Of a stretch of DNA of 64,000 nt, positions 15,898 through 62,225 are shown one piece after another; the stretch's first letter is position 1, and every line of letters begins with the position of its first letter. The notes under the pieces are model-generated. The model saw nothing but the letters and a program-made list of their open reading frames with translations. It made no database searches and was not told the DNA's origin. Where the stretch lies: NCBI RefSeq assembly GCF_988243305.1, contig NZ_OZ547136.1; one strand, given 5' to 3'. A program made the position numbers and the translations under genes.

Positions 15898-15909
15898 CAC
15901 GCTACCGCC
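15898..15909 (-). promoter_or_regulatory. ops element (RfaH recruitment site) within the JUMPstart leader upstream of wza
   Basis: Minus strand reads GGCGGTAGCGTG (plus strand cacgctaccgcc), matching the ops consensus GGCGGTAGnnTG, about 180 nt upstream of the wza start. Confidence 0.8.
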
Positions 15910-16377
15910 CCTGGCTTTTTAGCTACCAATACACTGATTTAGCTTAATTTTTAAAACCCTCTCAACATACAGTCGTTGATGAGAAAGGGTTATTGCGGAA
16001 ATTAACTTCCGAATATAAGGTGACATTATGGTAATTGAATATTGGCTCTCCAATAATGCAGGAGGAAGTGTTACAGCTAACGGAATAGCAGGCAAGGTAA
16101 CAATTCGGCAATTGGCTATTTTTAAGAATTATATTAAGTGTCATTCAACATGGTTTTTAGGAGTTTCTTTAGGTTGACAATATTTAATATAGTGTCTCCA
16201 CATGCGATATTTCTTAAATAATGTTTTATTATTACCACTTTTAATTCAGGGATAATGTGAGGTTATAAACCTCAAATAATATGAGATAAATAGTGCTGCA
16301 ACATTGCATTTTTGCCCCGATTTATCCATGATCGAATTGTGACATTTGTCATACAACGAATAGGTTTTGTACTTACT

Positions 16378-26033: not shown

Positions 26034-26105
26034 ATATTCCGGTTGTCGCGACGGCAACATTTCGCTAAAGTCACGCCCCTTCTTCACCGGCATGGGGATT
26101 ATTTC

Positions 26106-27458
26106 GTGTTTATTGGTTTTGATTACGGTACAGCAAACTGTTCAGTGGCGGTCATGCGCGACGGTAAACCGCATTTGCTAAAAATGGAAAACGACAGCAC
26201 GCTGCTGCCTTCAATGCTTTGCGCGCCAACGCGTGAAGCGGTAAGCGAATGGCTGTACCGCCATCATGATGTTCCGGCAGACGACGATGAAACGCAGGCG
26301 CTGCTGCGTCGGGCGATTCGTTATAACCGCGAAGAAGATATCGATGTTACGGCGAAAAGCGTGCAGTTCGGTCTTTCCTCACTGGCACAGTACATTGATG
26401 ATCCAGAAGAAGTGTGGTTTGTGAAATCACCAAAATCGTTCCTCGGTGCCAGCGGCTTAAAACCGCAGCAGGTAGCGCTGTTTGAGGATCTGGTCTGCGC
26501 AATGATGTTGCACATTCGCCAGCAGGCGCAGGCACAGCTGCCAGAAGCGATTACTCAGGCGGTGATTGGTCGCCCTATCAACTTCCAGGGGCTGGGCGGC
26601 GATGAAGCAAACACCCAGGCGCAGGGGATTCTGGAACGCGCGGCGAAGCGTGCCGGGTTTAAGGATGTGGTATTCCAGTACGAGCCGGTCGCGGCTGGGC
26701 TGGATTACGAAGCCACCTTGCAGGAAGAAAAACGGGTGCTGGTGGTGGATATCGGCGGTGGTACGACTGACTGTTCATTGCTGCTGATGGGGCCGCAGTG
26801 GCGTTCGCGTCTCGATCGTGAAGCCAGCCTGCTGGGTCACAGTGGTTGCCGTATTGGCGGTAACGATCTGGATATCGCACTGGCGTTTAAAAACCTGATG
26901 CCGTTACTGGGCATGGGTGGCGAAACCGAAAAAGGCATCGCCCTGCCGATTCTGCCGTGGTGGAATGCGGTTGCCATCAACGACGTACCTGCGCAAAGTG
27001 ATTTCTACAGTAGTGCCAACGGTCGTCTGCTTAACGATCTGGTACGCGATGCCCGCGAACCGGAAAAAGTGGCCCTGTTACAGAAAGTCTGGCGTCAGCG
27101 TTTAAGCTATCGCCTGGTACGTAGCGCAGAAGAGAGCAAAATTGCGCTTTCAAGCGTAGCGGAAACCCGCGCCTCACTGCCGTTTATCAGCGATGAACTG
27201 GCTACGCTGATTAGCCAGCAAGGGCTGGAAAGCGCCCTCAACCAGCCACTGATGCGGATTCTGGAACAGGTGCAACTGGCGCTGGATAACGCCCAGGAAA
27301 AACCGGATGTCATCTACCTGACCGGCGGTAGCGCCCGTTCGCCGCTGATTAAAAAAGCGCTGGCAGAACAGTTGCCGGGCATTCCGATTGCAGGCGGCGA
27401 TGACTTTGGCTCCGTCACCGCCGGGCTGGCACGCTGGGCGGAGGTGGTGTTTCGTTAA
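26106..27458 (+). CDS. yegD: Hsp70-family (actin-like ATPase) chaperone homologue
   Basis: Track ORF is 471 aa; the conserved N-terminus FIGFDYGTANCSVAV begins at a GTG at 26106 (about 450 aa). Confidence 0.85.
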   Translation: MFIGFDYGTANCSVAVMRDGKPHLLKMENDSTLLPSMLCAPTREAVSEWLYRHHDVPADDDETQALLRRAIRYNREEDIDVTAKSVQFGLSSLAQYIDDPEEVWFVKSPKSFLGASGLKPQQVALFEDLVCAMMLHIRQQAQAQLPEAITQAVIGRPINFQGLGGDEANTQAQGILERAAKRAGFKDVVFQYEPVAAGLDYEATLQEEKRVLVVDIGGGTTDCSLLLMGPQWRSRLDREASLLGHSGCRIGGNDLDIALAFKNLMPLLGMGGETEKGIALPILPWWNAVAINDVPAQSDFYSSANGRLLNDLVRDAREPEKVALLQKVWRQRLSYRLVRSAEESKIALSSVAETRASLPFISDELATLISQQGLESALNQPLMRILEQVQLALDNAQEKPDVIYLTGGSARSPLIKKALAEQLPGIPIAGGDDFGSVTAGLARWAEVVFR

Positions 27459-27470
27459 TTGAAAACTGGC

Positions 27471-29417
27471 TCAGCAACGGCTTAAATCAGCCTGCGCCTG
27501 AGCCAGTTTTTCTGCCGCCTGACGTAACGGTTCCATCAACGGCATGGTCCGTGCTGGAGCATGAAGGCGGAATCGCTGCAACTCTGTCGCACCGACAGTC
27601 AGCGCCGATTCCAGCCGATGTCGTTTGGCGGCCATTTTTGCCATTACCGCTTGTCTGTCTGCAGGCGTTACCGCTTCGTTCGGCCTGAAAACAAAACGGC
27701 GTTCGCAACTCGCTTTCCAGTCGATAACCGCCTGGGTCAGATGATCACCAAAACCTTTTACTTGCTTAACGCTCCGTCGGGTAACGTCTGCCGCCGTTTC
27801 AATACCAAAGGACCGTAACGCCGCTTTACGCGCAGGGCCAACGCCGGGAATAGAGGCAACATCAATAAAAAATCCCTCCAGAAACTTCTGCTTCTGCCGT
27901 TCCCTTGCGGTGTCCTGAAGTGCTGCCAGATCGCGCTTTTCTTCTTCCGGTAACCCAAGAATTTCGTCCTTCATTTTTTCGAGCATCGTCCGTTTGGCGA
28001 TAAAACCTTCCAGCCCGCCCAACCGTTGGATCTGGCTGACTAAATGGTCATAGTCCATTTTCGCGCGATTAAACGCCTCACGGCGTTGCTGGATTTCTGC
28101 TTTGTACGCTTTGCTTGTCAGGCTGCCAATAATCCAGATAGCCGCCAGCACAGGAACCAAAATAATATAACGCGGTTCTGCCTGAAGGCCGCAAAGCAAC
28201 AGCGATAACGCTGACAGTGCGATCTCAATCAGAATGATGTATTCGCGCCGTAACAGGCCTAAAGGAAGCGGCCTGCCAGTCAGTTGGAAATGATCGGGTA
28301 ATGGCAGTTGCAATGCTGGCGGTGCTACTGACGCCATCACCATCGCCCAGACTTTCGCCAGCACAAAATCACCGCTGGTGGTAATGACCTCTTCGCCGAG
28401 ATCAATAAAATAGATAACGCCTTGATTATCCAGCGCACACCACGGGCAGTCAGTCAAATGACCGGGGTAAACATGCATTGCCGAAACGGTACATTTCTTT
28501 AACTGTTGGCGTAGTAAATCAAGTGCCGCAACCCACGCTTTTGCCGTCGGACGCCCGGTTGCCACGCCACTTTCCGTGAATGCCTGCTGAAACATGGTTT
28601 CAACATCGCCCGGTAACATCGACAGCGGAATAGATCGTGGCGGCGGTTTTAAACCACGTCGCTGATTATCTGACGCGTAGGCATAACGGAAATGGGCAAT
28701 ATCCGTCTCCAGTGCATTACCCGCATCAGAGACAAGCGGTACACCGGAATAAGGATGCCGCCCACCAAACAAGACGTGAAAAATCAGCAACGCAAGGCCA
28801 AAATTATCGTGATTCGCGGTGCGTTCAAAGCCGACAAATGATGGCAAGGTTTGCAGCTCTGGCGGCGTAAAATGCGACACGCCGACTTCGCATAAATGCA
28901 GCGTGCCATTGGCGTTAATCTGAAAGGAGTCGCTATCAATCAACACCACTTTGCTGTCACGGCCTACCATAAAGCTGTTCTGGTTTACGTCACCCACGAC
29001 ATGCCCGTGCTCGTGAACCGTAGCAAAAGATGAAGCAATATTGCGCGCAACATAGAGTAGAAAATCCCACGCACAATGAGGGTAACGTTGGCGACGATGT
29101 GCCGGGCTATAGATCATATGAATCGGTTCTTTACCAGAAACTTTTGGCATCATAAAACCGATAACCTTTCCGCCTCGTCCACCGTGAAGCGTTGCCTGCG
29201 GCCAGGCGACATAATTCAACAATTGCGCGTCAGCTGTCGCAGCCATAAAGGCAAGTTTGTCCTGTTTTAAGGCGGGTGGCGGCGTGTGATAAATCTTGGC
29301 GACACTATCGACAAACTCCTCGATATCATAAACCGCGCCTTCGCCACCTTTTCCCAGTTCACGCCCGAGAGTGGTCAATTCACCTGTCGATGTAAATACT
29401 TTTATATTTGTCTTCAT
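27471..29417 (-). CDS. yegI: Hanks-type Ser/Thr protein kinase with two TM helices and a C-terminal helix-hairpin-helix-like motif
   Basis: 648 aa: Gly-rich loop LGKGGEGAVYD, VAKIY lysine motif, catalytic-loop-like HVVGDVNQN, IDSDSF; hydrophobic segments near residues 380-430; GVGPARKAALRSFG near the C-terminus. Confidence 0.88.
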   Translation of the reverse strand: MKTNIKVFTSTGELTTLGRELGKGGEGAVYDIEEFVDSVAKIYHTPPPALKQDKLAFMAATADAQLLNYVAWPQATLHGGRGGKVIGFMMPKVSGKEPIHMIYSPAHRRQRYPHCAWDFLLYVARNIASSFATVHEHGHVVGDVNQNSFMVGRDSKVVLIDSDSFQINANGTLHLCEVGVSHFTPPELQTLPSFVGFERTANHDNFGLALLIFHVLFGGRHPYSGVPLVSDAGNALETDIAHFRYAYASDNQRRGLKPPPRSIPLSMLPGDVETMFQQAFTESGVATGRPTAKAWVAALDLLRQQLKKCTVSAMHVYPGHLTDCPWCALDNQGVIYFIDLGEEVITTSGDFVLAKVWAMVMASVAPPALQLPLPDHFQLTGRPLPLGLLRREYIILIEIALSALSLLLCGLQAEPRYIILVPVLAAIWIIGSLTSKAYKAEIQQRREAFNRAKMDYDHLVSQIQRLGGLEGFIAKRTMLEKMKDEILGLPEEEKRDLAALQDTARERQKQKFLEGFFIDVASIPGVGPARKAALRSFGIETAADVTRRSVKQVKGFGDHLTQAVIDWKASCERRFVFRPNEAVTPADRQAVMAKMAAKRHRLESALTVGATELQRFRLHAPARTMPLMEPLRQAAEKLAQAQADLSRC

Positions 29418-29617
29418 AATGTTTTAAGGGCAGTCATATTATATTTTAATGAATAATAACACTGCCCATTATAATTATTTCCATATTGGAAGAGTCCCAC
29501 TCAAGAATAAAAATGATAATGCAATTTCATCAGGATACAATTCAATTCCAACCTGATAATGATTCACTTCCACAGATTTTTTGCTAACTTTTACTACACA
29601 GGGATTCTGGAAAAAAG

Positions 29618-30079
29618 ATGAAAAAGATATTACTTATGTTGAGTCTGCTATTTTTTACTACCGCGGGCTTTAGTGAAGTTTCGGATACGTTAGTGACGGG
29701 AGGTTATGATAAACAAGCGATGTCTGACGCCATTCAACATGCGCGGAAAGAAACCGATCAATTCATCGAAATTATGAATAAAAAAGATGCCGATACTTTC
29801 GCGGTCAAAGCCCCGATAACCGATCACGGAAGAACAGAGCATTTCTGGCTTACGGATGTCACTTATTCTAACGGCATGTTTATTGGCGTAATAAGCAATG
29901 ACCCTGGTATTGTTACAAACGTAGAATATGGTCAGGAGTGGAAAATCAAGAAAGAAGATATTTCAGACTGGATGTATACGCGCGGGGATAAAATTTACGG
30001 CGGTTATACCATTGATCCTTTATTAGTCACCTATCCAAAAGAAGAAGCCGACGAGCTAAGAGCAAAATTAGTTCGCTAA
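29618..30079 (+). CDS. yegJ: Secreted/periplasmic protein of unknown function
   Basis: 153-aa ORF with N-terminal signal peptide MKKILLMLSLLFFTTAGFS; AT-rich codon usage relative to neighbours. Confidence 0.8.
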   Translation: MKKILLMLSLLFFTTAGFSEVSDTLVTGGYDKQAMSDAIQHARKETDQFIEIMNKKDADTFAVKAPITDHGRTEHFWLTDVTYSNGMFIGVISNDPGIVTNVEYGQEWKIKKEDISDWMYTRGDKIYGGYTIDPLLVTYPKEEADELRAKLVR

Positions 30080-30106
30080 CCAGCCATTATATTGATTGCT
30101 TAAACT

Positions 30107-30134
30107 GGCGGTTGAACTGTTGTCTTCAACCGCC
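30107..30134. terminator. Hairpin between convergent yegJ and yegK
   Basis: ggcggttgaa / 8-nt loop / ttcaaccgcc, a perfect 10-bp stem between the two stop codons. Confidence 0.5.
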
Positions 30135-30143
30135 ATGCGATGT

Positions 30144-30905
30144 TCATTCTGTCCACAGCGCCAGTGCCAACGTTTTATCATCATCCGTACGCTCGTTTAC
30201 CGCCGGGCTGGACAAAAACTGCTTTAACAATTCAGGTAATAAATCGAGTTGTTCCTGCGTTGCTGACGCCAGTCCATTGAAAAACGGGGTAAAAAAAGGC
30301 ACATGCGGAGAATTATTCAACATATTTAACGCCAGCCTCTGAATACCATCCGTAAATGCTGCAACTTTATGCGCACGCTCAGTACTGGTGTAAGTTTCCA
30401 GTCTGGAAACAGCATCGTCATCGGTAATGAAGTGCGTCATGTTGGCATATTCACCCACCATCGGCGTGAGAGGCAATTGCAGACCGTGACCCAAATCTAC
30501 CACCATGCCGCCATCGCCAATCTGCATAATCAAGGTGCCGTCAGGCGATGAAATCAGTCCCAGAAATGTACAGGCAAAATCGCGAACCGCTAATTCTTTG
30601 GCCTCTGCCTCGGCAAAAAGTCGCTGACGAATGGTCAGCACAATATCCGTGGCGAGGACATCATTAAGCCCCAATTCCCCACCCTGCACTTTTTGCGACA
30701 TATAAGCCATCGCTTCATTGACGGCGAGCATCGCGCCTTCGCCACCCTGCGAGACGCTGCCTGCGCCATCAGCGACAAATACCGACAATAATGGCTGCTG
30801 GTCATTTAACCAGGCAACCTGCATCTGGCAGGCATCCTGGCAAGGCAAGTCCGCGCTGATGTGCGACGTTCCAACGGTTGATGCATAGACCAGACGCCAG
30901 CTCAC
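30144..30905 (-). CDS. yegK: PP2C-family Ser/Thr protein phosphatase
   Basis: 253 aa with PP2C-like metal-binding motifs VADGAGS and FTDGIQ; start overlaps the yegL stop. Confidence 0.88.
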
Positions 30906-31561
30906 ACTGACGTCCAGCCTTTTGGCGCTTCCAGCACAACTTCCGTTCCCGGCGTGGAGCGGGAAACCGAACGCAGCGAACTGGATAACCAGCTAAACAG
31001 TTCACGGAATTGTAATCCCTGCAGTGGCAAAGGCTGACGAACGCTGATTTGTGCCAAAGTCTTCATATCCGCCCCCTGAACACCGATGGAAAAGAAGGCA
31101 AACTTCTTATCTTCTTCCCCCTGAAACACTTTGTTGGCGGCAGCCTGCCACTCATCGGTTGGAGCGCCATCGGTGATCAGGAAAATCCACGGGCGATAAT
31201 AGGAAATACCATTGGCGCGATACTCACGTTTGCGCTCCTCAACCATATCCAGGGCTTTGGTAATGGCGGCCCCCATTGGTGTATCGCCCTGGGCAAACAG
31301 GATGGGCGGGAAAAAATTAGCGGCGCTGGTAAAGGGTTGTTCCACATGCACCGGGCCGAACGTCACAATACCGAGTTCCACTCTTTTTAAGGCCAGCGGA
31401 TCGGCAAGCAGTTCATCGCGAAAGGTAACCAATCCGGCGTTAAGTTCATTAATAGGTCTACCACTCATCGAACCAGAAACATCCAACAGCAAAATGCAGG
31501 GGCAACGTGGTTCCGGGTTACTGGCAAAATCGCTGGTGGCAAACGTGATTTGTTCGCTCAT
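30902..31561 (-). CDS. yegL: von Willebrand factor type A (vWA) domain protein
   Basis: 219 aa with MIDAS motif DVSGSMSG (DxSxS) and downstream ITDGAPTD. Confidence 0.88.
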
Positions 31562-31742
31562 AAGAAATCCTTTCTTAGAGAATTATTGAGGTCCGGTATC
31601 ATACCGATTGCAATAATGAAATAAGAGCAAACGAAGAAACTTTCAGAATTAGGCCCGGCGGCGCAGAAAATTTTGCTATTCGCCTCGCAAGAACGGAGAG
31701 CCGTCGATTGACACTAAGGGCGGAGTGACATAATTTCAGGAG

Positions 31743-31878
31743 TGAGGGTTAGGGAGAGGTTTCTCCCTCCCCCTGGTGTTCTTAGTAAGCCTGGAAGCTA
31801 ATCACTAAGAGTATCTCCAGTATGATGACGTGCTTCATCATAACCCTTTCCTTATTAAAAGCCCTCTTCTCCGGGAGA
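31743..31878 (+). ncRNA. sibA: Sib antisense sRNA (antitoxin), copy 1
   Basis: Sigma70-like promoter ttgaca (31708-31713) and taattt (31731-31736); transcript fully covers the ibs ORF on the opposite strand; terminator hairpin gccctcttctccgggagagggttt. Ends approximate. Confidence 0.55.
31772..31831 (-). CDS. ibsA: Ibs type I toxin peptide, copy 1 (19 aa, variant)
   Basis: Minus-strand ORF MMKHVIILEILLVISFQAY with SD-like ggaaagg upstream; E and Q replace hydrophobic/Pro positions seen in the other two copies. Confidence 0.55.
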
Positions 31879-32077
31879 GGGTTTCCCGTTTCAGCGTCCC
31901 GCTGAAATCGTCGGCTTACCTCCTTTCGCCCTGAATGCAGTCTATCGCTAACGCGTGAACAAAATAGTTTCCTCTGTGATTATTGCGTAACGACTCGCAA
32001 AGAATATTTGCTGGCAGGATCGCAGACTGAAAAGCCTGCAGATTGACAATCTTATCGTGAAGGCATAATTTCAGGAG

Positions 32078-32215
32078 TGAGGGTAGAGCGGGGTTTCCCC
32101 CGCCCTGGTAGTCTTAGTAAGCCGGGAAGCTTATGACTAAGAGCACCACGATGATGATCCACTTCATCATGACCCTTTCCTTATTTAAGGCCCCTTCCTC
32201 GGGAGGGGCTTTCCC
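32078..32215 (+). ncRNA. Sib antisense sRNA (antitoxin), copy 2
   Basis: Promoter ttgaca (32043-32048) and taattt (32066-32071); terminator hairpin ccccttcctcgggaggggcttt. Ends approximate. Confidence 0.55.
32114..32170 (-). CDS. Ibs type I toxin peptide, copy 2 (18 aa)
   Basis: Minus-strand ORF MMKWIIIVVLLVISFPAY. Confidence 0.6.
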   Translation of the reverse strand: MMKWIIIVVLLVISFPAY

Positions 32216-32404
32216 GTTTCAGCGTCCCGCTGAAATCGTCGGCTTACCTCCTTTCGCCCTGAATGCAGTCTATCGCTAACGCGTGAACAAAATAGTTTCC
32301 TCTGTGATTATTGCGTAACGACTCGCAAAGAATATTTGCTGGCAGGATCGCAGACTGCAAAGCCTGCAGATTGACAATCTTATCGTGAAGGCATAATTTC
32401 AGGA

Positions 32405-32545
32405 GTGAGGGTAGAGCGGGGTTTCCCCCGCCCTGGTAGTCTTAGTATGCTGGGTAGCTAATCACTAAGAGCACCACGATGATGAGTAGCTTCATCATGA
32501 CCCTTTCCTTATTTATGGCCCCTTCCTCGGGAGGGGCTTTCCCGT
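32405..32545 (+). ncRNA. sibB: Sib antisense sRNA (antitoxin), copy 3
   Basis: Promoter ttgaca (32371-32376) and taattt (32394-32399); terminator hairpin ccccttcctcgggaggggcttt. Ends approximate. Confidence 0.55.
32442..32498 (-). CDS. ibsB: Ibs type I toxin peptide, copy 3 (18 aa)
   Basis: Minus-strand ORF MMKLLIIVVLLVISYPAY. Confidence 0.6.
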   Translation of the reverse strand: MMKLLIIVVLLVISYPAY

Positions 32546-32705
32546 TTCAGCGTCCCGCTGAAATCATCGGCTTACCTCCTTTCGCCATGCACGTAGTCTA
32601 TCGCTAACGCGTAGATAAAATAGTTTCATGTATTATTACTGGATGCGTGCTCGCAAATGTGCCCGCCATTCAGACGATTCCCGATAGTGTTTCATAATTC
32701 CTCCA

Positions 32706-32723
32706 TTTTTCTCCCTTATTGGC
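32706..32723 (+). promoter_or_regulatory. BaeR box upstream of mdtA
   Basis: tttttctcccttattggc matches the BaeR consensus TTTTTCTCCATDATTGGC at all but about two positions; about 55 nt upstream of the mdtA start. Confidence 0.7.
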
Positions 32724-32776
32724 TGGCTACACTAGTATCATTCCGCGAAACGTTTCAGGAAGAGAAACTCTTAACG

Positions 32777-45834: not shown

Positions 45835-45864
45835 GCTGCATTTATTAAGGTTATCATCCGTTTC

Positions 45865-45951
45865 GCTGAAAAACATAACCCATAAAATGCTAGCTGTACC
45901 AGGAACCACCTCCTTAGCCTGTGTAATCTCCCTTACACGGGCTTATTTTTT
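45865..45951 (+). ncRNA. cyaR: CyaR (RyeE) Hfq-dependent sRNA
   Basis: gctgaaaaacataacccataaaatgctagctgtaccaggaaccacctccttagcctgtgtaatctcccttacacgggcttatttttt matches my recollection of CyaR, including the terminal hairpin and U-tract. Confidence 0.85.
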
Positions 45952-62094: not shown

Positions 62095-62225
62095 TTGCTC
62101 CTGCCATAACGTGAAGAAGCAATGACCTGGTGGTCCGTGACTTCCCTACGCTGGCATTATCCAGATCAGGTGATACGGGTATTTCTCAGCCTTCACGCAG
62201 AAGGGCACCCCGAGTCGTTTGATTG
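62095..62225 (-). promoter_or_regulatory. TPP (thi-box) riboswitch in the thiM leader
   Basis: Minus strand reads ...ACGACUCGGGGUGCCCUUCUGCGUGAAGGCUGAGAAAUACCCGUAUCACCUGAUCUGGAUAAUGCCAGCGUAGGGAAGUCACGGACCACCAGGUCAUUGC..., containing the conserved CUGAGA and ACCUGAUCUGGAUAAUGCCAGCG thi-box elements. Confidence 0.9.

Follow-up and report, generated by a model that had tools for sequence, protein, structure and literature searches.

What do YegI and PphC do for Escherichia coli? They are the only pair of a eukaryote-like kinase and a PP2C phosphatase described in this bacterium, and neither a phenotype nor a substrate is known for the pair. We took up this question in a stretch of 64,000 nucleotides (contig NZ_OZ547136.1 of assembly GCF_988243305.1; hereafter the window) that carries yegI, yegJ, pphC (also called yegK) and yegL. 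We lean, with modest confidence, towards the answer that yegL, pphC and yegI form a TerY-P-type switch, in the order von Willebrand factor A (vWA) protein, PP2C phosphatase and kinase, which would serve in conflict with phages or mobile elements or in DNA stress more than in everyday physiology. The locus is an already named, annotated and partly characterised operon, and its enzymology has been published. The relation between kinase and phosphatase was established experimentally by others; here we describe a mobile three-gene family and its domain architecture. The initial annotation of the window called the physiological role of the cluster unsettled, which agrees with the lack of a known phenotype for the E. 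coli genes.

Three proteins with conserved catalytic residues

The triad is encoded on the minus strand. Its first gene, yegL (30902–31561, minus strand), specifies 219 amino acids; pphC (30144–30905, minus strand) starts with GTG and specifies 253; and yegI (27471–29417, minus strand), the third gene, specifies 648. The yegJ frame (29618–30079, plus strand; 153 amino acids) stands outside the triad, divergent from yegI and convergent with pphC. The open reading frames (ORFs), coordinates and strands of all four genes are exactly those of the initial annotation, including the position of yegJ between yegK and yegI on the opposite strand, and RefSeq annotates the same four genes in the closest E. 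coli genomes. Reading the minus strand as ...TCA GTG TGA GCT GG, we found the four bases GTGA (30902–30905, minus strand) to be common to the end of yegL and the start of pphC (GTGAGC), as in the RefSeq genomes. The overlap claimed earlier is thus real, and the translational coupling claimed with it is a plausible reading of that overlap. When the 5-kb region of the locus was compared with 5426 complete E. coli genomes, 5417 had a match (best 98.4%) and 5396 (>99%) covered at least 80% of the region, with ORFs intact where loci were read. Because the locus is present at this coverage in 5396 genomes, yegI, yegJ, pphC and yegL are genuine conserved genes and not chance ORFs.

YegL matches the Pfam families VWA (1.6e-9) and VWA_2 (5.8e-7) and carries the DxSxS metal-ion-dependent adhesion site (MIDAS) that had been noticed in it: D27-V-S29-G-S31 (31469–31483, minus strand), with T94 and D131 making the site complete. 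Each of these five residues is at least 98% conserved among 82 homologues from many phyla, which are 58–98% identical to the window protein (median 67%). The C-terminal tail (residues 185–219; 30905–31009, minus strand) is serine-rich and nearly invariant; F185, W191, L192, S193, S195, S200, S202, P213, G215 and W216 are each at least 98% conserved in the same homologues, so that the tail ends in P.GW and holds four invariant serines. Columns that are at least 95% conserved make up one third of the YegL alignment, and YegL is the slowest-evolving member of the triad (median identity 67%, against 41% for PphC at the same loci). This pattern fits contact with a conserved cellular target or with several partners, and the tail is a candidate substrate of the kinase.

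PphC matches Pfam PP2C_2 (PF13672) over residues 11–220 (1.7e-52), in keeping with the PP2C motifs reported earlier for YegK. D46/G47, D131/G132, D186/G187 and D242/D243 are at least 96% conserved among 85 homologues, and the window protein is 32–93% identical to the homologues encoded in the same loci. Rajagopalan and Dworkin, whose discovery of PphC started from Bacillus subtilis PrpC as the query, counted six of the eight canonical PP2C residues in it and found it to be a Mn-dependent PP2C-like phosphatase that is inactive as the D46N mutant. PphC dephosphorylates YegI, and PphC-D46N is phosphorylated by YegI; the K-12 and B alleles of PphC differ by ~8%, and that of K-12 is less active (Rajagopalan and Dworkin). 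Within Escherichia, PphC diverges fastest: the protein of strain E69 (locus L040, 2980–3741) is 82% identical to that of the window, compared with 98% for YegL, 93% for YegI and 97% for YegD. For the window, K-12 and AF14 alleles, the rate of nonsynonymous substitution (dN) of PphC is 0.02–0.03, against 0.001–0.008 in flanking genes, and both PphC and YegI evolve faster as proteins than their neighbours. Comparisons of deep E. coli lineages, with a synonymous divergence (dS) of 0.12–0.19, put dN/dS at 0.16 for PphC, 0.09 for YegI and 0.03 for YegL, and there was no sign of positive selection over whole genes among the three alleles.

The kinase domain of YegI (residues 1–305; 28503–29417, minus strand) is an atypical eukaryotic protein kinase (ePK), as judged from Foldseek, the family profile and invariant residues. 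An AlphaFold2 model built with 99 homologues (pLDDT, the predicted score in the local distance difference test, 93.5) has the protein-kinase fold. A Foldseek search with the N-terminal 300 residues gave 1887 PDB matches at E ≤ 0.001, and the 50 listed were all protein kinases, with template modelling scores of 0.70–0.73 to BRAF and PknB and ~0.7 to Aurora kinases. The family profile reached solved kinases (TTK, RSK, PknE and BRAF) at 2e-6 to 1e-3, and 67 of the 99 full-length homologues matched Pfam Pkinase (PF00069) at E ≤ 0.001 (best 7.8e-13). The window protein itself did not match Pkinase even at E ≤ 10, and when each of the four proteins was searched on its own against the sequences in the PDB, nothing significant came back. 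The name Hanks-type kinase, given to YegI from the start, therefore holds by fold and family, but the Pfam model misses the window protein.

Ten YegI residues (G24, K41, D143, N145, D161, D163, S164, E187, D204 and R289) are invariant in the 99 homologues. The Gly-rich loop reads G22-x-G24-G25-x-G27-x-V29. The catalytic loop, V-G-D143-V-N-Q-N-S, lacks the HRD motif, and its D+5 position is Ser in YegI and the Escherichia group and Asn in 60 of the 99 relatives. D-S-D-S replaces the DFG triplet, and across residues 48–66 no acidic residue is invariant in the 99 homologues that could stand for the alpha-C Glu. We looked in the alignments for a loss of catalytic residues and found none: K41, D143, D161 and E187 are among the invariant positions, PphC keeps D46 and its three further Asp motifs, and the YegL MIDAS is conserved as described above. 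In vitro, YegI is an active, Mn-preferring Ser/Thr kinase; K39D and D141N (K41 and D143 in window numbering) kill its activity, and changing DSD to DFG inactivates it (Rajagopalan and Dworkin). Autophosphorylation occurs on serines in and around the DSDS loop and is removed by PphC. These authors did not find conditions in which yegI and pphC are expressed, and stationary phase is the only phase from which expression, and that faint, has been reported.

Directly after the kinase domain, C309, H315, C324, W326 and C327 are invariant in the 99 homologues, with the last cysteines arranged as C324-P-W-C327. In the model this CHCC region forms a beta-hairpin followed by a helix, and we read it as a predicted zinc knuckle (residues 306–331; 28425–28502, minus strand) that would bind zinc. 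A poorly conserved linker leads to a transmembrane hairpin (residues ~392–433; 28119–28244, minus strand), with hydropathy maxima at residues 393 and 417 and model helices at 391–411 and 417–467. The two transmembrane helices recognised in the initial annotation correspond to hydrophobic segments at ~392–410 and ~416–432. As these are joined by only ~5 residues, YegI has no external sensor domain, and a published PhoA–LacZ study agrees: the protein crosses the inner membrane twice and has both its ends in the cytoplasm.

The C-terminal 210 cytoplasmic residues are modelled (pLDDT 96.8) as long paired helices around a double helix-hairpin-helix, (HhH)2, module (residues 517–573; 27699–27869, minus strand), which lies between the coiled-coil helices. 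HHH_5 at residues 517–553 (7.6e-4) is the sole Pfam match of YegI. The only domain-level structural match of this region is the N-terminal (HhH)2 domain of Rad51 (probability 0.94; also 1pzn), and the remaining matches in the fold search were generic coiled coils, all at E > 0.1. A Sphingomonas relative has a topoisomerase-type C4 zinc finger in place of (HhH)2. Because (HhH)2, the C4 zinc finger and the published OB-fold and zinc-ribbon versions all occur at this end, a nucleic-acid-binding C terminus seems to be a constant theme of such kinases.

A mobile family related to TerY-P

An exhaustive search for the YegI family, which extends over bacteria and archaea, gave 9669 cluster representatives (E ≤ 1e-3); of the 150 best that were listed, most are full length (~640–655 amino acids), with identities down to ~35%. 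Full-length relatives of ~646 amino acids are 90–98% identical within Escherichia, ~62% in Klebsiella and ~60% in betaproteobacteria. Scanning one genome per species revealed YegI relatives in at least 575 species; we kept 80 loci and examined them with hidden Markov models for which the E. coli proteins and six relatives supplied the sequences. Of these loci, 75 reach far enough upstream, and at 73 of them the genes for the vWA protein, the phosphatase and the kinase follow one another in this order on one strand. The window YegI is 34–95% identical to its homologues in triad loci, and the loci come from beta-, gamma-, alpha- and delta-proteobacteria, Planctomycetes, Acidobacteria, Actinobacteria, Paenibacillus, Chlorobi, Synergistetes and, among the methanogenic archaea, Methanomicrobiales. 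Three-gene co-conservation, on which the initial annotation had staked its proposal, is therefore present across this range. Clustering of the flanking ORFs of the 80 loci revealed no universal fourth gene, only lineage-specific neighbours.

YegL homologues of 54–73% identity lie on 39 non-E. coli plasmids, in hosts including Rhizobium, Sinorhizobium, Pseudomonas, Deinococcus, Cupriavidus and Sphingomonas. A Tn7-like element adjoins the triad at two loci (L006 and L051), and no full-length triad relative was found in phage genomes. Cryptic Escherichia clades carry the triad at the same site as the window, without yegJ. In the divergent strain ET5, whose genome is filed as E. coli (NZ_CP101014.1, L004; 83.6% nucleotide identity), the order is yegD, one Ibs gene and mdtA; yegI, yegJ, pphC and yegL are absent, and dgcE and mdtB are annotated as pseudogenes. 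Since the genes are collinear at 73 of 75 loci, have no constant neighbour, occur on plasmids and are missing from a triad-free Escherichia site, the trio behaves as a compact, horizontally mobile unit.

Several lineage-specific neighbours were seen. Some of the betaproteobacterial triads closest to that of E. coli (L005 5719–6474, L009 6075–6284, L011 5700–6501, L017 4165–4410 and L070) have, immediately 5' of the vWA gene and co-directional with it, a gene for a conserved basic protein of 69 amino acids (MKFGMRKPS...APRGWGWLTNPKRAAYNRVYSRTTFS). A secreted SNase-type nuclease is also encoded there in some loci, and a thermonuclease lies near the triad on Sinorhizobium meliloti pB. On the latter plasmid (L094 4857–7956), hxsB, hxsC and hxsA end 30 bases before the vWA gene in the same direction, and an SH3-domain gene directly follows the kinase.

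Secondary sources, among them Bell et al. (2024) citing Anantharaman et al. (2012), describe TerY-P as a TerY-like vWA protein with a PP2C phosphatase and a Ser/Thr kinase, linked to tellurite resistance, restriction and DNA processing, and present it as a proposed metal-sensing phosphorylation switch. On ter plasmids of the IncHI2 type and of Klebsiella, tblastn with YegL finds TerY and vWA proteins at 29–37% identity over 57–75% of its length (E 1e-11 to 4e-17), and the TerY-P layout of adjacent, co-directional genes is that of the 73 loci above; in the window, the pphC–yegI junction is interrupted by yegJ. The resemblance of the triad to predicted conflict and signalling systems, remarked on from the sequence at the outset, holds. 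Scans of the four proteins with NCBIfam and PADLOC assigned no family beyond weak matches. Because the likeness to TerY goes together with PADLOC models that miss the trio, we file YegLKI as a TerY-P-like triad of a distinct subtype and not as an experimentally validated system.

Comparison with characterised relatives sharpens this placement. Secondary accounts of Gao et al. (2020) credit a TerY-P variant with an OB-fold kinase with protection against T7-like phages. That system resembles YegLKI in having three genes, a nucleic-acid-binding kinase C terminus (predicted in YegI) and a stand-alone cassette. It differs in ending in an OB-fold, where YegI has the CHCC knuckle, two transmembrane helices and the (HhH)2 stalk, and its anti-phage activity has been demonstrated, whereas such a role for YegLKI is a proposal. 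The TerY-P modules of ter clusters and CoCoNuT systems have the same domain trio, links to restriction and DNA processing and, on ter plasmids, the TerY proteins that YegL resembles. In the McrBC-like CoCoNuT systems of Types II and III-A, however, the kinase ends in a zinc ribbon and the operons are larger, whereas YegLKI stands alone, and, unlike ter clusters, most YegLKI-type loci have no ter genes.

PknB/PstP of Mycobacterium tuberculosis and PrkC/PrpC of B. subtilis likewise pair an ePK-fold kinase with a PP2C enzyme that dephosphorylates it. Those kinases have one transmembrane helix, extracellular PASTA domains, canonical HRD...N and DFG motifs and no vWA partner, in contrast to YegI with its hairpin and ~5-residue loop, VGD-x-N-Q and DSDS motifs and no outside domain. 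Staphylococcal Stk2 is a single-gene kinase defence. Like Stk2, PD-T4-6 is a single Ser/Thr kinase in phage defence, and YegI matches it marginally over residues 19–240; both differ from YegI in being single proteins without a phosphatase, a vWA partner or a membrane and (HhH)2 region.

The same relatives raise the alternative of a Ter-type module for chemical or DNA-damage stress, in which the vWA metal site would sense a metal or xenobiotic and the kinase and phosphatase would relay the signal to DNA repair or processing, much as has been proposed for TerY-P in ter operons. We consider this improbable. The homology of YegL to TerY speaks for it, as does the description of TerY-P as a putative metal-sensing switch in the literature. 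Several neighbourhoods do so too: the triad adjoins Ter-linked genes on a Deinococcus plasmid, DUF4236 occurs at L011, UmuDC, HU and YejK lie next to a triad on a Pseudomonas megaplasmid, and in E. coli alkA is two genes away. When either YegL or YegI is overproduced in E. coli, endogenous DNA damage goes up, which places both among the proteins that increase such damage. Yet this effect is non-specific, being common to many transporters, including the neighbours MdtA and MdtB, and the closeness of alkA may be incidental because the triad looks inserted between yegD and mdtA. Most triad loci, that of E. coli included, have no ter genes nearby, and the window holds no terZABCDE. On the Deinococcus plasmid (L095 12155–16191), the YegL-type triad adjoins genes for an HpcH/HpaI aldolase, a StiP protease and a phosphoribosyltransferase (PRTase), a set that also flanks terW and terY on IncHI2 ter plasmids (L092).

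Defence neighbourhoods and the proposed switch

We sampled the surroundings of 25 triad loci outside Escherichia, ten by Pfam and RefSeq annotation and 15 by running PADLOC on up to six of the nearest ORFs of at least 150 amino acids. Recognised defence genes lie near the triad at 13 of the 25 loci, a count that looks high but, having no matched genomic background, is suggestive only. At five of the ten annotated loci, classical defence genes lie no more than 8 kb away: McrA-like, SLFN-like helicase, BrxR and JetB genes at L005; AbiH, a KAP NTPase and the Tn7-like element at L006; GmrSD, a type I restriction–modification system and SymE at L007; type I restriction–modification and Mrr at L009; and AbiE with SbcCD-like genes at L096. 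None were recognised at the other five. PADLOC found strong matches at eight of the 15 further loci. At one of these, GajA and GajB (Gabija) end 57 bases before the vWA gene; the others have Avs2, an OLD/AriA-like ATPase with PDC-S26, a type I restriction enzyme, a cytosine methyltransferase with RtcR, a methyltransferase with mad2, PDC-S01 with SoFic, and SoFic with PDC-S04.

A TerY-P-type switch of the following kind can be proposed. The core module would have reached Escherichia by horizontal transfer and become fixed between yegD and the Sib/Ibs–mdtA region; in the lineage of the window, the yegJ cassette, which is unrelated, then broke up the operon. Tethered to the membrane on its inner side, the (HhH)2 stalk may bind nucleic acid, perhaps incoming or damaged DNA, and this binding would favour dimerisation and autophosphorylation of the kinase. 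Activated YegI would then phosphorylate YegL, probably on its tail, and/or other targets; the MIDAS of YegL would engage a conserved cellular partner, and PphC would hold the system off and reset it.

A number of observations weigh against a role in conflict or DNA stress and keep our confidence modest. No defence neighbour was recognised at 12 of the 25 loci sampled, and in E. coli the flanking dgcE, alkA, mdtA and mdtB gave no PADLOC match. The core locus is near-universal (5396 of 5426 genomes), with dN/dS of 0.03–0.16, unlike strain-variable defence islands. YegL meets the PADLOC TerY model only at E = 0.013, PphC matches no PADLOC v2 model at E ≤ 10, and YegI finds only PD-T4-6 (1.2e-4) and MkoA (5.5e-4) among them, both weakly. 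No effector domain is evident in the trio, no phenotype is known for E. coli yegLKI, and its expression is barely detectable in the laboratory. Finally, we infer from sequence and models that YegI senses and, through (HhH)2, binds DNA, that it binds zinc and phosphorylates YegL, and what the biological output is.

A second alternative is that YegI and PphC are an ordinary housekeeping Ser/Thr pair that tunes some side of E. coli physiology, such as stationary-phase or envelope functions, by phosphorylating cellular proteins, with YegL as an accessory scaffold and no part in conflict. We regard this as unlikely, though it has more behind it than the stress relay. The locus is core in E. coli, with synteny extending to other Escherichia species, purifying selection acts on all three genes, and the faint expression on record is from stationary phase; the surroundings are purely housekeeping at L010, L031, L038 and L045, and many E. 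coli Ser/Thr phosphoproteins have no assigned kinase. It accounts poorly for a patchy distribution that suggests horizontal transfer, with ~60% identity to betaproteobacteria and occurrences on Rhizobium, Pseudomonas and Deinococcus plasmids and in archaea, and for the divergent Escherichia genome that is cleanly triad-free, with yegD, ibs and mdtA in succession. It is also at odds with the half of the sampled loci that lie among defence genes, and with a kinase that has no extracytoplasmic sensor and instead a putative nucleic-acid-binding module.

A bolder version of the conflict reading is that YegLKI-type triads are a distinct, widespread, stand-alone class of immune or DNA-surveillance systems, a core-genome defence that defence finders miss. 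Its membrane-tethered kinase would detect DNA by the coiled-coil/(HhH)2 stalk, and YegL would be a phospho-controlled effector acting on a universally conserved host target. We think this possible, though less likely than not. No paper linking yegI, yegK or yegL with phage defence appeared in the literature that we searched. If a defence role is true, E. coli has a core-genome system that PADLOC misses; if not, the locus is an ordinary, already-annotated signalling operon. The comparative picture directs attention to YegL, with the invariant serine tail and the MIDAS as first targets. The allele of choice is the contiguous B-type operon and not the K-12-type operon split by yegJ, and phage infection, incoming DNA and DNA damage are the conditions that we would suggest first.

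The yegJ cassette and the chromosomal setting

Alignment with a yegJ-less allele identified the yegJ cassette as an AT-rich insertion of 726 bp (29418–30143). It also provides pphC with its last three codons and yegI with its first ~17; the frames are intact in both alleles, and its GC content is 33–43%, against 50–57% in the triad. The cassette is present in 1898–1924 of the 5426 E. coli genomes (~35%), and tblastn detected yegJ at none of ~90 other triad loci, those of other Escherichia species included. Rajagopalan and Dworkin had noted that yegJ, present in K strains, is missing from B and from many pathogenic strains, in which pphC and yegI share an ATGA overlap; in yegJ-less E. coli alleles, both triad junctions are thus four-base overlaps. 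We conclude that yegJ lies outside the system, because of its presence in ~35% of genomes, its absence from every other locus examined and its low GC content, and that the operon is split by yegJ in the lineage of the window. An IS4-family element also lies inside the yegI–yegL region in at least one E. coli strain (EC6868, NZ_CP095083.1).

YegJ matches Pfam DUF2314 (3e-25), and its N terminus (29618–29680, plus strand) resembles a Sec-type signal peptide: MKKILLMLSLLFFTTAGFS, followed by E. The initial annotation had made YegJ a secreted member of the cluster; the signal-peptide-like N terminus would fit secretion, and membership is contradicted by the GC content, the 35% presence and the absence elsewhere. 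A 2026 study found that YegJ binds the N-terminal half of RNase E and that its overexpression is toxic, makes the envelope leaky and strongly induces yegD. Export of YegJ could account for the envelope stress and leakiness on overexpression. The same study classed YegJ as cytoplasmic, and an N-terminal two-hybrid fusion would mask a signal.

A further alternative makes yegJ the fourth functional gene of the system, for example as a secreted sensor or effector under the kinase. Its embedding in the operon, the 200-bp divergent AT-rich region that it shares with yegI, the toxicity, leakiness and induction of the neighbouring yegD on overexpression, and the speculation in the 2026 study that it acts in the same pathway would all suit such a system. 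We give it very little credence, the least of all the readings considered here: the gene is confined to about a third of E. coli genomes and is missing from other Escherichia and every other triad locus examined, its base composition sets it apart, the ends of the cassette cut into both flanking genes as for an insertion, and the B-type allele with its ATGA overlap is common and phylogenetically widespread. As a member of the triad family, yegJ was rejected on its ~35% presence, cassette boundaries, low GC content and the tblastn result.

The split operon could also be read as a step towards loss, the triad being a silenced relic whose genes are intact yet unused in E. coli and slowly decaying. 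Almost no transcripts appear under standard conditions, the K-12 allele of PphC is less active than that of B, the operon is interrupted in 35% of genomes, and at least one strain has the IS4 insertion. Nevertheless, we think this very improbable. Between deep E. coli lineages with dS of 0.12–0.19, dN/dS stays at 0.03–0.16; >99% of complete genomes retain at least 80% of the region, with intact ORFs in the loci read; the reading frames are complete at the cassette junctions in both alleles, and no change is seen at the catalytic residues. Toxic conflict systems, besides, are commonly kept under tight repression.

On the chromosome, the locus has dgcE, alkA and yegD to one side, alkA being two genes off, and mdtABC to the other. 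Beside yegL lies a Sib/Ibs type I toxin–antitoxin array (31562–32776, both strands) of three copies with a period of ~330 bp, in agreement with the placement of the cluster next to it in the initial annotation. Rfam recognises three full-length Sib RNAs (31708–31856, 32043–32185 and 32371–32513, plus strand; 142–146 bits), the first of which starts 147 bases upstream of yegL. Opposite each is an Ibs ORF of 18–19 codons (31782–31841, 32114–32170 and 32442–32498, minus strand). The copy number varies, K-12 having two and the nearest genome, M7424, four annotated Ibs genes. IbsA of the window (31782–31841, minus strand) reads MMKHVIILEILLVISFQAY, with Glu at position 9, where K-12 and M7424 have Val; a Glu in the middle of the hydrophobic stretch might inactivate this toxin. 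Scans for promoters and terminators over 27300–31900 gave sites no more numerous than in shuffled sequence, and for this reason we make no regulatory claim.

On the other side, yegD (26043–27458, plus strand) codes for a protein of the Hsp70/actin fold, and 12 bases separate its end from the stop codon of yegI on the opposite strand. Its product has a weak, short PADLOC match to PDC-M61B (6e-6), and its longest ORF begins at a TTG 63 bases 5' of the annotated start. Elsewhere in the window, Rfam recognises an algC-type element, naRNA4, a JUMPstart before the colanic-acid genes, CyaR and a thiamine pyrophosphate (TPP) riboswitch. The positions given for these other elements are 1275–1481, 15898–15936, 45863–45948 and 62126–62222, and they are ordinary for this region of the chromosome.

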